From the NCBI GenBank assembly GCA_016188355.1, contig JACPHY010000011.1, forward strand, positions 23,219-87,218: a stretch of DNA of 64,000 nt, read 5' to 3'. The position numbers and the translations under genes were made by a program. Positions within the stretch are counted from its first letter, which is position 1. Each line of letters begins with the position of its first letter. Under the pieces are notes generated by a model. It had not been told where the DNA came from and did not search any database. It saw nothing but the letters and a program-made list of their open reading frames with translations. Source of the DNA: Candidatus Uhrbacteria bacterium. GTDB lineage: Bacteria; Patescibacteriota; Patescibacteriia; JACPHY01. Shown here one piece after another: positions 49,069-60,003 of the stretch.

Positions 49069-49182
49069 CGTGTCCCATCGTTCCGCGATGGGGCTTCCCA
49101 CTTCCGGATTCCGTGCGAGTCCGAAAATGGGAGGCGCAATGCCTCGGTTCCTTCACGTGCAGGAAAGAGAGGAGATGGTTCC
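49069..49182 (+). promoter_or_regulatory. conserved leader L1 upstream of propeller paralog 1 (divergent copy)
   Basis: TGTCCCATCGTTCCGCGATGGGGCTTCCCAC... has the same architecture as the other leaders. Followed by GGAG Shine-Dalgarno and ATG. Confidence 0.5.
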
Positions 49183-50295
49183 ATGCAACGGTTATCGAAA
49201 CAGCCGACGTCGGTGGTGCTGCAGCCCAAGCAGATTCTCCTTCCGCATTATTTACGGGAAGGGGACGGTGAGCATATGGTCTGTTTGGCATGGTCCAATG
49301 TAGGGACGCATGTGGTGGTGGGTTCTGGCTCCGTCATCTCGTCCTGGCGGAGCGATGGGATACTCTGTGGGCGATTGTCCATGCCGAGCAATACCAATGG
49401 ATGGAATGTTGTGTGTATTGGGGAAACGCAGATACTCTTGCAATGCAGTATCGATTGCGGGAGCTTCGAGAGTTCGGTGACGAAGTGGCTTGCGCCCATG
49501 CATTTGCAGCAGATGGAGCGCCTTGGACGGCCGCGCAGGGTTGGGGACATAGGTGTTTGCGTGTCCGTTGCCCCGAATCAGGAATGGGTTGCTCTGGAGA
49601 CCGTGCCGCTACGGCAGTCGAACGTTTCGGGCTGGCCGGTATGGTGGACACTCTATTCCATCATCAATCGTCGACCGATGTTCCAGATGTCGATATCCAA
49701 TCGGTCCATGCTGCACTCTTGGGAGCCGCAGAGCCGTTGGTGTGCTCTGGCCAGCAAAGAGGCATCAACGGTTTTTCTCGTCGCTCCATTGCATGATGGA
49801 GGGAGAGAAGAGGAGGTGCAATGTGGCCATCTGGTGGAGGATATGGCGGTGTCGCTAGACGGTCAGCGGCTTGCGGTGGTGTGCGAGCGCGGGCATTGCT
49901 GGGCGTATCGGGTGTCGATGGATGGAACCGGCGCATTTGATGTTGCGTTGGATCGGCCGATGCGGAGCCTTAGGGTGCGTATGATGGAGTCCGTGTTCCT
50001 TCGCTGGACCCCGGATGACCGACTCATTTGCGTACTGGAACGAGAGCCGAGCATCGTGTTGACGGACGTGTGGGGAGGCTCGAGGCCGCGGGTGGTCGCG
50101 AAGGTGCGAGGTCCTGCGGAAATGCGGTTGCTGAGCGTATCTCCTGATGCGCAACGGATGCTCGTGGTGGGCAGGATATCCAAGTCACTGTTCGGCCAGA
50201 ACGTTGTTGAGCGCTTACCTGTTGTGCTCGATTTTGGCGCACCGCACTTCGATCTCGCCCCCCGGGAAAATTGGGCGGACGCCTCGTTCGGGTGA
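49183..50295 (+). CDS. WD40-like beta-propeller paralog 1; C-terminus ...LDFGAPHFDLAPRENWADASFG
   Basis: Repeated WD-like blades (..VVGSGSVISSW.., ..WTPDDRLICV..). Shares the invariant C-terminal motif with six downstream paralogs. Confidence 0.7.
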   Translation: MQRLSKQPTSVVLQPKQILLPHYLREGDGEHMVCLAWSNVGTHVVVGSGSVISSWRSDGILCGRLSMPSNTNGWNVVCIGETQILLQCSIDCGSFESSVTKWLAPMHLQQMERLGRPRRVGDIGVCVSVAPNQEWVALETVPLRQSNVSGWPVWWTLYSIINRRPMFQMSISNRSMLHSWEPQSRWCALASKEASTVFLVAPLHDGGREEEVQCGHLVEDMAVSLDGQRLAVVCERGHCWAYRVSMDGTGAFDVALDRPMRSLRVRMMESVFLRWTPDDRLICVLEREPSIVLTDVWGGSRPRVVAKVRGPAEMRLLSVSPDAQRMLVVGRISKSLFGQNVVERLPVVLDFGAPHFDLAPRENWADASFG

Positions 50296-50330
50296 GTGCG
50301 CTTCTCGCGTGGTTCTGTTGCTCCGCGATT

Positions 50331-50435
50331 TTGTCCCATCCCCGGATGGGACTTCCCACGCCGCGATCTCCAAGTGAGGCCGCTGCGTGGGAGGAGTGGT
50401 TCTTTCACCAGAGCAGGAAAAAGGAGGTATCGGTC
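50331..50435 (+). promoter_or_regulatory. conserved leader L2 upstream of the AAA+ gene
   Basis: TTGTCCCATCCCCGGATGGGACTTCCCACGCCGCGATCTC...GCCGCTGCGTGGGAGGAGTGGTTCTTTCACC...AAGGAGG..ATG. Palindrome TCCCATCC-CC-GGATGGGA plus a second hairpin. Confidence 0.6.
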
Positions 50436-57714: not shown

Positions 57715-57816
57715 ATTTGGTCCCATCCCCGGATGGGACTTCCCCCGCGGTGATCTTGCGGAAGATCGTTGCGGGGGAGGAATGTGGTATTGGTTCTTTC
57801 CCAAAGGAGGCGTGTC
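57715..57816 (+). promoter_or_regulatory. conserved leader L6 upstream of paralog 6
   Basis: TTGGTCCCATCCCCGGATGGGACTTCCCCCGCGGTGATCTTGCGGAAGATCGTTGCGGGGGAGGAATG...GGTTCTTTCCCAAAGGAGG..ATG. A-T to C-G covariation in the second hairpin. Confidence 0.6.
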
Positions 57817-58818
57817 ATGTCGAATGGATCGGCGGAACGTGGAAATTTGATTTCGGATCCGCGAGTCGTGCTCCTGTCCGGACCGGATCAGCGGGCGGAT
57901 AGTTGTGCGTGGTCTCCCTCGGGAAATCTCGGGGCGACCGTGCACGGGGGTACGTGTGTGTTGTGGGATCTCCATACGGGAGCAGCGACGGTGCGCTGTG
58001 CGACCGGTCGGCTGGTGCGCGACATTGCGTTTGATGGATCGGGTAGACGGATCATGGTCCTGGATGATCACAGCGTTTCTGCGTGGAGCGGTGAACGGGG
58101 AAACTACGAGGGCGTTGTGGTGCTCGCGAATGGATACCAGATGCTCTCCATTGGTGGCTATTATTTGGCTGCGTGGCAACCGGATCGCTGCCTGCTCCAG
58201 CCAATGCGAAGGGACGTGCTCGATCCCATCGAATTTCAGGAGCGGTGGAAGGCGGTAGTGCTCTCCGCGGATGGGTTGCTGACCTGGTTTCTTTGGTCGG
58301 ATGGTGTGGTGGCTGCGCATACGGGAGCGGGATCGGCACATCGTATCGCTGAATTTCCATTGGTCTGTGAGGGCCGTGATCGATCCATTGTCTGTGCGCT
58401 ACAGGGTCGGAGGGCGGTGGTGTGCTGTGGGGGGCATGTGCACGTGTTCGATTGCGATGCGCCGGAGCGTCAACGCGAGCGTATGTGGGCATTGACGGAT
58501 CCCATTCATGCAGCGACGTGGCTTTGGGGAGGACGAGCCCTACTGCTGGCGCATGGTGCATCGCGCGATGCGAGTCGGCTGTGCGGTATCGACGTGGCAA
58601 CTGGTTTTCCGTTTTGGCGCTCGTCGGCCCATACCTTGCAGCAGGTGACGGCATTTGCGTCCGCACCGGATGGCCATCGCGTGCTCTTGAATGCAGCATT
58701 GGTGACGCCGTTCTCGGCATCGGATGCGGAACGTTTTGGCGCGACGGTACTCGACTTCGGTGACCCGCCCTCGTCTTTGGGTGGTTCACTGCATTGGTCG
58801 GACGCGTCGTTTGGGTGA
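57817..58818 (+). CDS. WD40-like beta-propeller paralog 6; C-terminus ...LDFGDPPSSLGGSLHWSDASFG
   Basis: CAWSPSGNLGATVHGGTCVLWDLHTG..., ASAPDGHRVLLNAA. Confidence 0.7.
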   Translation: MSNGSAERGNLISDPRVVLLSGPDQRADSCAWSPSGNLGATVHGGTCVLWDLHTGAATVRCATGRLVRDIAFDGSGRRIMVLDDHSVSAWSGERGNYEGVVVLANGYQMLSIGGYYLAAWQPDRCLLQPMRRDVLDPIEFQERWKAVVLSADGLLTWFLWSDGVVAAHTGAGSAHRIAEFPLVCEGRDRSIVCALQGRRAVVCCGGHVHVFDCDAPERQRERMWALTDPIHAATWLWGGRALLLAHGASRDASRLCGIDVATGFPFWRSSAHTLQQVTAFASAPDGHRVLLNAALVTPFSASDAERFGATVLDFGDPPSSLGGSLHWSDASFG

Positions 58819-58866
58819 TGGAGTGCGAACATGGGATAGGGCGGCGACCGCGTACCAGGTCGACGC

Positions 58867-60003
58867 ATGGGAGGAATGATGGCATTGCTCGATTCCGCGG
58901 TGTCATTATTGACGCCGGATCTCTTTGCAAAAGCACGCGCCATATTGCCGCCGATTACCCTACCGCGGCCACGGCGTCGTTTGCTGGGCGGACTTCCCGA
59001 TCGACCGACTGCGCTGGTTTGGGCACCAGACGGATCACATCTTGCGATGATCTGCCACCCCGCGGAGACCGTGGTTTGGCATGCGACGCGTGATGCGTGC
59101 GATTATTTTCCGCCGGCCATGGCATTTGCGTTTACGGGAGGGGATGCACAAACGTTGTTGTGGGATGATGGGCAGCACGTGCAGCATTCGCGAATGCTCT
59201 TGACGGTGTCGATCGCGGAGGGTGCGTCGACGTCGTGCAAGCGGTGGTCGCGATTATTGCCCATGGATGCGGATCGCTGTGTGTTTGTCGAGGGATTCGA
59301 ACCGGATCGATTTCCTAAATCGGCTCGATGGACGGCGCGTTGCTTGGCGAGTGGTGCGTCCTGGCCCTTTGCGGGTGGGCCGTGTTCCGGGCCCGTCGAA
59401 GTCCTGCGCGACCATAATCTCCTGGCAGTGGCAGATGCGGCGTTATTGCAGTTTTGGGAGGTGCCGTCGCGCGGCGTGGAGCTGCCGAAGACGCTGTTGC
59501 GTCAGCAGGTTGCCATGCCGTGCACCGATGTCATTCGCGCGTTGGCGACCTACCAACACTCCTGCGTGGTGGGATGCGTGCGCGGGCATTGCTACGAATA
59601 CGATTGCCGTGCACAGGCGTGGACGCGAGGGGTCGAATGTCCCGGTAAGGATGCGATCACCGCGCTCGCGGTTTCGTCGGACGGGCGGGTACTGTTCGTG
59701 AGTACGAGCAATGCCGCATCGATGATTGGTATGGACTGGCAGCGCGGCGAGGTGTTGCGGAACATCGGCCCATTCTATCGTCGCCGGTCCCCGCGTCTGC
59801 TCGCGGCGAGCCCCGATTGCCGAGTGATCGCGTGCGATGAATATTTGCCGCCGACCGATGATCGGTGCTGGAGCGATCGGGTGCTCGACTGGTCGGATCG
59901 CATGGGTATCCGTTCTGGCGGACAGCTGCGCCTCGTCACGTTGCTCGATTTCGGCACACCGCATTTCGGGGTGACCCATTGGGCGGATGCGTCATTCGGG
60001 TGA
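58867..60003 (+). CDS. WD40-like beta-propeller paralog 7; C-terminus ...LDFGTPHFGVTHWADASFG
   Basis: No leader and a 48-nt gap after paralog 6. LVWAPDGSHLAMICHPAETVVWH..., AVSSDGRVLFVSTS. The start is ambiguous among three clustered ATGs. Confidence 0.65.
   Translation: MGGMMALLDSAVSLLTPDLFAKARAILPPITLPRPRRRLLGGLPDRPTALVWAPDGSHLAMICHPAETVVWHATRDACDYFPPAMAFAFTGGDAQTLLWDDGQHVQHSRMLLTVSIAEGASTSCKRWSRLLPMDADRCVFVEGFEPDRFPKSARWTARCLASGASWPFAGGPCSGPVEVLRDHNLLAVADAALLQFWEVPSRGVELPKTLLRQQVAMPCTDVIRALATYQHSCVVGCVRGHCYEYDCRAQAWTRGVECPGKDAITALAVSSDGRVLFVSTSNAASMIGMDWQRGEVLRNIGPFYRRRSPRLLAASPDCRVIACDEYLPPTDDRCWSDRVLDWSDRMGIRSGGQLRLVTLLDFGTPHFGVTHWADASFG

Follow-up and report, generated by a model that had tools for sequence, protein, structure and literature searches.

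Why should seven strongly diverged proteins, encoded one after another, all end in the same seven residues, and what would read such an ending? The question is raised by a stretch of chromosomal DNA from a metagenome-assembled genome (MAG) of Candidatus Uhrbacteria, of the candidate phyla radiation (CPR). The whole stretch analysed, called the window here, comprises 64 kb of a 106,544-bp contig. Within it, seven plus-strand genes for β-propeller proteins of 333 to 378 amino acids (aa) span positions 49183 to 60003 in what is probably one operon, with the gene of an AAA+ ATPase embedded among them. The anatomy of this locus is real, clean and unusual: it combines an invariant C-terminal heptapeptide with a leader RNA of its own and with an ATPase whose N-terminal region is an orphan. 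The heptapeptide tail is read here, tentatively and at somewhat less than even probability, as a short motif by which the propellers dock to a single partner common to all seven, which would most likely be the embedded AAA+ protein.

Seven propeller genes and an embedded ATPase gene

The initial annotation described seven consecutive same-strand paralogs with an embedded 912-residue AAA+ protein, and this arrangement is confirmed by the open reading frames (ORFs) and by the public gene calls. Gene starts were refined from ribosome-binding sites together with those calls, giving the following array:

49183-50295, + strand: p1, 370 aa, ends ...NWADASFG (MBI2483217.1)
50436-53174, + strand: AAA+ gene, 912 aa, between p1 and p2
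53262-54329, + strand: p2, 355 aa, ends ...HWADASFG (P0002; NCBI "WD40 repeat domain-containing protein")
54361-55398, + strand: p3, 345 aa, GTG start, ends ...CWADASFG (P0042)
55506-56546, + strand: p4, 346 aa, ends ...HWSDASFG (the paralog that was modelled)
56652-57710, + strand: p5, 352 aa, ends ...HWADASFG (P0043)
57817-58818, + strand: p6, 333 aa, ends ...HWSDASFG (P0044)
58867-60003, + strand: p7, 374-378 aa, start uncertain, ends ...HWADASFG (P0045)

The proteins of the array and the AAA+ protein correspond to NCBI MBI2483217-24 (locus tags HYV74_03520-55 of the HYV74 assembly), and identical sequences are also present in the Logan assemblies of SRR12113419 and SRR12113385. The start of p3 is the GTG at 54361, and p2 and p3 therefore do not overlap. 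For p4, the NCBI call (HYV74_03540) has 274 aa against 346 in the ORF used here, and the public annotation appears to be truncated at the N terminus; the longer ORF retains the first blade, with a VPDPVVTILPG...VVWSPDD segment common to p2, and this part is confident in the structure model described below.

An invariant heptapeptide ends all seven propellers

All seven propeller proteins end exactly in W[A/S]DASFG, directly followed by the stop codon. Searched as a degenerate DNA pattern, the tail plus stop matches the window seven times, always on the plus strand and always at the end of a long ORF, and 100 shuffled windows contain no match. The claim of an invariant motif at the extreme C terminus of all seven proteins thus stands, and the seven C termini quoted in the initial annotation were reproduced exactly. 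Each C terminus is built in the same order, with an [L/F]DFGxP block, a variable spacer and then the terminal W[A/S]DASFG-COOH. A six-frame peptide search of the window retrieved no further copy of either the tail or the upstream block. The spacer from DFGxP to the tail tryptophan is unconserved in sequence and constant in length at nine residues, except in p7, where it is three residues shorter (six residues).

Within the terminal heptapeptide codons, the third position varies among the paralogs wherever it is degenerate, at five sites (GAC/GAT, GCA/GCC/GCG, TCG/TCA, TTC/TTT, GGG/GGA), and all three stop codons occur after the tail. Pairwise comparison of the tails gives 46 synonymous versus 10 non-synonymous nucleotide differences, and the latter all fall at one site, the Ala/Ser alternation of tail position 2. 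Because the degenerate sites vary while the peptide is fixed and the linker before it is variable, the pattern points to purifying selection on the peptide as the force that maintains the tail.

It is extremely improbable that the identical ends instead reflect an effect at the DNA level, such as recent gene conversion or recombination of cassette ends around a functionless peptide. Recombination is conceivable between tandem paralogs with conserved flanks (a 5' leader of ~70-75 nt and 24 nt at the 3' end), but synonymous tail sites and stop codons differ among the copies, the variable spacer between the two conserved blocks leaves no contiguous conversion tract, and the tail is retained in p2, p6 and p7, which have no downstream leader. 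Gene conversion was rejected from within the array on these grounds, namely the scrambled synonymous sites and the variable linker that divides the conserved blocks.

The propeller bodies are diverged and predicted to adopt a WD40-type fold

Outside their C termini the seven proteins are strongly diverged, as had been stated at the outset, with identities to the reference sequence of 20 to 45% in MAFFT alignments (p1 was the reference in one alignment and p4 in the other). Apart from the two C-terminal blocks, the only invariant residues are M1, P17, L22, W33, W55, C201, D275 and P299 (p4 numbering), which look like blade-core positions and form no obvious conserved pocket. The seven propellers appear to have diverged anciently. 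The initial annotation also reported neither Sec signal peptides nor transmembrane helices, which agrees with the hydropathy profiles: in none of the seven paralogs does any 19-residue window exceed 1.3 on the Kyte-Doolittle scale, so that no transmembrane helix or signal-like hydrophobic region was found.

The Pfam check that had been proposed for the WD40-like assignment gave a mixed outcome. Weak matches to WD40 and other propeller families were retrieved, but only p4 passes the gathering score of the WD40 family PF00400 (30.9 bits against 27 bits), with p3 at 26.8 bits and the remaining paralogs at 12 to 19 bits or, for p5, with no match. Many further propeller-family models match the paralogs weakly and far under their cutoffs, among them PF24807, with 16 to 30 bits versus a family cutoff of 200. 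Most WD-type Pfam matches thus fall short of the gathering thresholds, and the fold was assigned from a structure model. An AlphaFold2 (AF2) model of p4, computed from a shallow alignment of the seven paralogs only, has a predicted template modelling score (pTM) of 0.75 and a mean predicted local distance difference test (pLDDT) of 67, and is all-beta with 26 strands. Foldseek against the PDB returned seven-bladed WD40 propellers as the best matches of this model (E ~1e-11, TM scores of 0.6 to 0.75), including the Thermomonospora WD40 domain (5yzv), WDR61, G-beta and WDR5. The propeller assignment is thus borne out for p4, which is predicted to be a seven-bladed WD40-type propeller, and the other six paralogs are assigned to this fold through their alignment to p4.

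The two C-terminal blocks differ in the model. The LDFG strand block is placed with a pLDDT of 84, which suggests that [L/F]DFGxP is structural and forms the strand that closes the ring, whereas the last 11 residues (336-346) have a pLDDT below 50, and W[A/S]DASFG is probably a free, flexible linear motif.

The AAA+ protein has a classical motor and an orphan N-terminal region

The embedded protein carries an AAA+ module near its C terminus, matched by PF00004 at residues ~645-770 (E 1.4e-18; 68 bits versus a cutoff of 21.2). Its best PDB matches are the D2 domain of Cdc48/p97, VAT, NSF and FtsH, with E values down to 1.5e-36. The window also encodes, at another place, a genuine FtsH to which the AAA+ protein is 29% identical, with the functional motifs aligning one by one:

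AAA+ residues 647-654: Walker A, GPPGVGKS, aligned to FtsH
AAA+ residues 677-680: pore loop, PWVG, aligned to FtsH
AAA+ residues 701-707: Walker B, WFRDEVD, aligned to FtsH
AAA+ N750: sensor 1, SASNHP, aligned to FtsH
AAA+ residues 760-767: Arg fingers, VRAGRTDE, aligned to FtsH

By these motifs the protein is assigned to the classical clade, with everything that a substrate-threading classical AAA protein needs. The NCBIfam equivalog models of FtsH, Cdc48, PAN, Mpa and CdvC match it at 31 to 65 bits versus cutoffs of 500 to 1008, and over the AAA module only. The protein has no protease domain, and its C terminus (SGSLPA) has no HbYX motif; the lack of both a fused protease and an HbYX end makes remodelling a likelier activity than degradation.

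Over its first ~600 residues the protein has no significant match in Pfam, the PDB, phages or plasmids, and a search of 5.8 billion proteins retrieved no homolog of the N-terminal region, all outside matches being to the AAA module. Both parts of the original description, a classical module at the C terminus and an unrecognised region of about 600 residues before it, therefore hold. A single-sequence AF2 model of the protein has a pLDDT of 45 and is confident only for a helix of ~120 residues at positions 212 to 331; the N-terminal region is an orphan that is predicted to be rich in coiled coil. Two segments of this region, FLFVGSAGDG (residues 18-27; 50487-50516) and AIILPDVD (residues 138-145; 50847-50870), resemble degenerate Walker A and Walker B motifs. 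A non-significant match of the N-terminal region to an inactive FtsH-like AAA protein (E 0.27) is all that speaks for the idea that the two segments are what is left of a dead P-loop domain.

The ATPase and the propellers share a leader RNA

A conserved element of ~70 nt that folds into two hairpins lies 5' of p1, the AAA+ gene, p2, p4 and p6, and shortened or degenerate copies precede p5 and p7:

49070-49135, + strand: leader copy before p1, the most diverged full copy
50332-50397, + strand: leader copy before the AAA+ gene, two hairpins
53187-53252, + strand: leader copy before p2, with a UUCG loop and the GGAGG that p2 actually uses as its ribosome-binding site
55407-55472, + strand: leader copy before p4, followed by a 7-codon mini-ORF
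56547-56651, + strand: degenerate leader before p5, with the 5' arm of hairpin 1 lost
57719-57784, + strand: leader copy before p6, two hairpins
58819-58866, + strand: truncated leader before p7, a partial copy

Hairpin 1 has an invariant 8-bp stem, GUCCCAUC/GAUGGGAC, closed by a UUCG, UCCG or CCCG loop in four copies and by a longer loop before p1. In hairpin 2, UUCCCAC pairs with GUGGGAGG, and because of this pairing the hairpin is predicted to occlude a GGGAGG Shine-Dalgarno-like sequence. Across the five full copies, 91% of cells are paired, compared with 42 to 55% when the partners are slid, and five pairs show compensatory changes, a level reached in none of 500 shuffles; both figures come from five sequences only. 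The leader matches no Rfam family and has no further copy within the window. It is far better conserved than the coding regions. Since the AAA+ gene is not a propeller paralog and yet has the leader, the element is, within the locus, the strongest argument for co-regulation of the ATPase with the propellers. The initial annotation had not mentioned it.

Two mini-ORFs stand between a leader and the propeller gene behind it, namely MTIEQRR* (7 codons, 55481-55504) before p4 and MTKE* (4 codons, 56634-56648) before p5. The stop codons of both lie only a few bases from the downstream start codon.

A radical SAM gene probably belongs to the same unit

Three further genes precede p1, and a hairpin follows p7:

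47659-48207, + strand: orf182, first gene of the inferred unit, ends LVVGGGAR, overlaps orf75 by ATGA
48204-48431, + strand: orf75, ends HAMRKRVRGGT, ATGA overlaps on both sides
48428-49042, + strand: radical SAM gene, 204 aa, of NrdG/glycyl-radical-activase type
60011-60047, + strand: strong intrinsic-terminator-like hairpin (60011-60037; 11 bp, 8 GC) with a T run, taken as the 3' boundary of the unit

The first three genes are joined through their ATGA overlaps. Upstream of orf182 lie a strong terminator-like hairpin at 47525-47549 and a TTGACA at 47565. The unit of orf182, orf75, the radical SAM gene, p1, the AAA+ gene and p2 to p7 is probably co-transcribed.

The radical SAM protein is matched by PF13353 (Fer4_12, E 2e-26) and by Radical_SAM, and it has a CxxxCxxC activase cluster like that of NrdG and PflA. 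On the NrdG model TIGR02491 its score is 70.5 bits versus a cutoff of 126.1, and it is also below the cutoff of the PflA model. No PDB sequence match was found, and Pfam detects no SPASM/twitch, PqqD or RRE domain in it. The protein encoded by orf182 has no domain recognisable in Pfam, NCBIfam or PADLOC, and that of orf75 has no Pfam or PDB match. The end of orf75, HAMRKRVRGGT, resembles both the LRLRGG end of ubiquitin and the RVxG loop of glycyl-radical enzymes; a pairwise BLASTP against ubiquitin places orf75 in register with the C-terminal half, at a weak E value of 0.027.

The initial annotation had named kinase and radical SAM genes as neighbours to be followed. The radical SAM gene does lie inside the unit of the array, but the kinase gene does not, as it belongs to a separate upstream unit (44191-47512) that encodes three proteins and is closed by the strong terminator at 47525-47549. 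These are a Ser/Thr kinase with an N-terminal DnaJ (J) domain, a 354-aa orphan that contains the sequence DHTGSM, and a 400-aa protein with a weak match to the pyruvate kinase (PK) barrel. The DHTGSM motif is possibly like a metal-ion-dependent adhesion site (MIDAS), a suggestion made from the motif and without database support. Further upstream, directly 3' of infB, a perfect inverted repeat of ~15 bp, ACACCACCGGAGTCG...CGACTCCGGTGGTGT, occupies 43935-43975 and is followed by GTTGAC; it is probably the infB terminator together with the start region of the next unit.

The genes around the array have ordinary housekeeping functions and include those for SMC/RecN-like, DHH, VanW, TsaD, alanine racemase and GyrA proteins, for IF-2 and thioredoxin reductase, and for a PilB-type ATPase, FtsH, S1, RNase III and glutamate dehydrogenase. 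G+C content is even along the 64 kb, and the array locus is not an obvious island.

The arrangement is confined to one population in public data

A word-indexed search of the 5.8 billion proteins with p4, a seven-paralog profile and the AAA+ protein retrieved only the proteins of the MAG itself and generic WD40 or AAA proteins, and none of eight outside matches inspected for the seven-paralog profile carries the tail. In a HMMER profile search that was exhaustive over 1.84 billion representatives, the seven paralogs rank first (298 to 424 bits); the rest of the best 150 matches, at no more than 268 bits, are WD40 proteins of giant size with many repeats (10 to 26 matched stretches), and distant single-propeller relatives could rank below these 150. 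The 90%-identity clusters of all eight proteins hold no member from another organism. The contig of the best outside AAA match (P0040) encodes a Chromo/Cut8 protein and no propeller genes.

As a DNA pattern, the tail has 32 matches in GTDB species representatives, against a rough prior of ~32 by chance, 37 in JGI metagenomes and 3 in viral contigs, the last being single matches counted at the level of the DNA pattern only. When translated, the genome and metagenome matches are internal WADASFGW motifs, out-of-frame sequences or unrelated ends, and the combined DFGxP...W.D..FG-stop pattern retrieves nothing in the metagenomes. WADASFG followed by W is an internal motif of one actinobacterial family (context ...LDTAYTDV...; L001, L004, L005, L014, L017, L018, L020 and others), which explains many of the chance-level matches and is unrelated to the array. 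The proposed check for a wider tail family was negative, as the protein, genome and metagenome searches found no tail-bearing protein outside this MAG. Nor did they find homologs elsewhere, beyond generic WD40 proteins, that lacked the tail, which the initial annotation would have taken as a sign of recent gene conversion. As far as public data show, the arrangement is confined to one population, and its function can therefore not be argued from conserved neighbourhoods.

Comparison with collections of known systems was equally negative. No sorting-signal or other NCBIfam model matches p1 to p4, the four paralogs scanned. PADLOC-DB v2 gave no match for the four propellers scanned (p1, p2, p3 and p5), nor for orf182, the radical SAM protein or the 354-aa and PK-like proteins; the AAA+ protein matches IetA weakly (31 bits) and the upstream kinase matches generic kinase models. 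A known defence system was accordingly rejected, there being no matching PADLOC gene set. The literature holds no paper with the tail motif and none that links Uhrbacteria and WD40. The statement in the initial annotation that this is no described secretion, defence or proteolytic system is in line with the lack of any NCBIfam or PADLOC system match.

What might read the tail

An invariant tail on bodies with hardly any surface residues in common points to a single reader on another protein, and since the diverged bodies have no obvious pocket, the binding site of the tail is more likely to lie on such a shared protein than on the propellers. The AAA+ protein is the best candidate because it is encoded within the array, shares the leader and belongs to a class that reads short terminal motifs. 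The tail as a tag for this ATPase is the most economical reading, on the basis of gene order, the shared leader RNA and analogy. Seven different propellers would then engage one common partner through the tail, with the N-terminal region or else the pore of the AAA+ protein as the site of contact. In one version, the ATPase would treat the propellers as clients and pull at their C termini for assembly, disassembly or extraction; in another, they would be interchangeable receptor modules whose different binding faces are plugged into one motor.

Several points weigh against this assignment. The link between tail and AAA+ protein is a putative, indirect one, and the N-terminal model is so poor that no binding domain can be identified in it. 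The low pLDDT of the tail is weak evidence for disorder, given an alignment of the seven paralogs only. No orthologous loci were found that could offer evidence from co-occurrence or co-evolution. The analysis covers a 64-kb portion of the genome, and further tail-bearing proteins or partners may be encoded elsewhere. Finally, the co-transcribed radical SAM module could equally read the tail.

This last point leads to the main rival, an unlikely one, in which the tail is the substrate of the orf182-orf75-radical SAM module, the enzyme modifies the tail or a residue of the DFG loop in all seven propellers, and the AAA+ protein acts downstream or independently. The radical SAM gene lies in the inferred unit of the array directly before p1, with only a leader copy between; it is coupled to orf182 and orf75 by ATGA overlaps, its product is of the protein-activating NrdG/PflA type, and radical SAM chemistry on extreme C termini has a precedent in MftC, which acts on the mycofactocin precursor MftA. 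However, the glycyl-radical loop RVxG[FYW] has no counterpart in either tail or DFG block, a radical carried by the glycine of an exposed tail would be unprotected, and the 204-aa enzyme lacks the SPASM/twitch domain or RRE of peptide maturases; with its sub-cutoff TIGR02491 score, it could also be a housekeeping NrdG. A glycyl-radical loop in the tails was rejected, as [L/F]DFGxP...W[A/S]DASFG contains no RVxG; only orf75 has such an end, KRVRGGT, and there it lacks the aromatic residue and a following domain. The propellers as precursors of ribosomally synthesized and post-translationally modified peptides (RiPPs) were likewise rejected, since the enzyme has no SPASM or PqqD domain and an invariant terminal peptide on a variable body is the reverse of the RiPP pattern. 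The tail might also act within or between the propellers, as an intramolecular plug or latch or as the link of a head-to-tail, daisy-chained hetero-oligomer. Central pockets of propellers commonly bind terminal peptides, as in the Kelch-type receptors of Gly-ended C-degrons, KLHDC2 binds its own C terminus, and seven paralogs expressed together would be fitting subunits of a hetero-oligomer; a ligand that does not vary requires a conserved pocket, however, and the few invariant body residues form no obvious one, while AF2 leaves the tail undocked on the propeller. Such self-binding is distinctly unlikely.

Partners further afield have to be weighed as well. It is quite improbable that the tail is an uncleaved C-terminal signal for export or localisation to the cell surface or a host, for which the AAA+ protein would be the unfolding and feeding motor. 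The propellers form a large, diversified paralog family without N-terminal signals, as host-interaction proteins do, secretion of types I, IV and VII makes use of C-terminal signals, and a PilB-type ATPase and a pilin-like gene are present in the window. Yet the unit encodes no transporter, channel or membrane component, the tail matches no known CTERM sorting family and is followed by no transmembrane segment, and classical AAA proteins are not known to serve as secretion ATPases. A CTERM sorting signal in the strict sense was rejected, there being no transmembrane segment after the motif, no signal peptide and, for p1 to p4, no match to an NCBIfam model. A shared partner outside the unit is very improbable; it could be the J-domain Ser/Thr kinase, phosphorylating the serine of the tail, or the 354-aa protein, binding the aspartate through its possible MIDAS-like DHTGSM. 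The kinase, 354-aa and PK-like barrel genes lie directly upstream of the array unit, the tail does contain an invariant Ser and an invariant Asp, and the MIDAS domain of Rea1 pulls WD40 assembly factors by a conserved acidic residue. These genes form a transcription unit of their own, however, ended by the strong terminator, the 354-aa protein has no vWA match in Pfam, NCBIfam or the PDB, and the adjacency of the kinase unit has no comparative support.

Comparison with tail-addressed AAA+ systems

The comparison sets established features of known systems against what the sequence of the array shows. The closest parallel in layout is Vps4/CdvC with ESCRT-III, which also pairs a single-module classical AAA protein, equipped with an N-terminal recognition region, with a paralog family that carries a motif at the extreme C terminus (the MIT-interacting motif, MIM), and which remodels its partners and does not degrade them. 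In the array, by contrast, Pfam detects no MIT domain, the CdvC equivalog gives 46.8 bits versus a cutoff of 650, the partners are WD40 propellers and not ESCRT-III helical hairpins, and the tail is unrelated. Cdc20 and Cdh1 of the anaphase-promoting complex/cyclosome (APC/C) are, like the propellers here, WD40 proteins; they serve as interchangeable receptors that dock through a very short C-terminal tail (the IR tail), but they are eukaryotic and their partner is a tetratricopeptide repeat (TPR) subunit of an E3 ligase and not an AAA+ protein. The weak PF24807 matches of the paralogs, far under the family cutoff, are the only Pfam hint in this direction.

Engagement of a terminal tag by an AAA+ unfoldase is found in PAN, in Mpa/ARC with Pup and in ClpX with ssrA-type degrons. 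In PAN and Mpa the recognition element is an N-terminal coiled coil, and the AAA+ protein described here has long predicted helices before its AAA module. It differs from them in its scores (57 versus 500 bits for PAN, 31 versus 505 bits for pup_AAA), in that no OB domain was found and in lacking HbYX; unlike these systems, the unit encodes no protease, Pup or ligase. Rea1/Mdn1 with Ytm1 and Rsa4 again joins an AAA+ motor to WD40 propellers that are gripped by a small appendage with an essential acidic residue. There a dynein-like AAA+ protein uses its MIDAS domain to grip an appendage that is an N-terminal ubiquitin-like (UBL) domain, whereas in the array the appendage is a C-terminal peptide of 7 residues beside a classical AAA protein, with no MIDAS demonstrated. 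Sorting signals of the Haft type (PEP-CTERM, LPXTG, GlyGly-CTERM) resemble the tail as short C-terminal motifs on many diverged proteins per genome. They consist of the motif, a transmembrane helix and a basic cluster, on proteins that also carry a signal peptide at the N terminus and are served by a dedicated sortase; unlike these and the C-terminal domain (CTD) signals of the type IX secretion system (T9SS), which measure 80-100 aa, the motif of the array is the last 7 residues, without hydrophobic segment or signal peptide. By analogy, the locus is most like a tail-addressed AAA+ remodeller with paralogous partners, but it is no member of any described system of this kind.

Implications for the organism

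In its fullest form, the tail-as-tag reading would describe an undescribed, self-contained protein-handling system in which a dedicated Cdc48-like motor, equipped with a new type of recognition region at its N terminus, acts on seven propeller receptors or clients addressed by the tail, a private leader RNA tunes all cistrons, and the radical SAM protein and orf75 may also be wired in. This whole is rather unlikely to be correct in every part. Its significance is limited by the single organism in which the locus is found, and neither generality nor function can be argued from conservation. The organism is a groundwater-type candidate-phylum bacterium that is probably episymbiotic. If the tail does address seven propellers to one AAA+ motor, the locus would be a compact bacterial analogue of the receptor-plus-motor logic of eukaryotes, as known from the IR tails of Cdc20/Cdh1, from Vps4 with ESCRT-III MIMs and from Rea1 with WD40 factors, and of independent origin in a CPR bacterium that spends ~12 kb of a reduced genome on it. 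It would then also provide a new, very short and transferable C-terminal recognition tag, together with a new substrate-recognition domain of an AAA+ protein.

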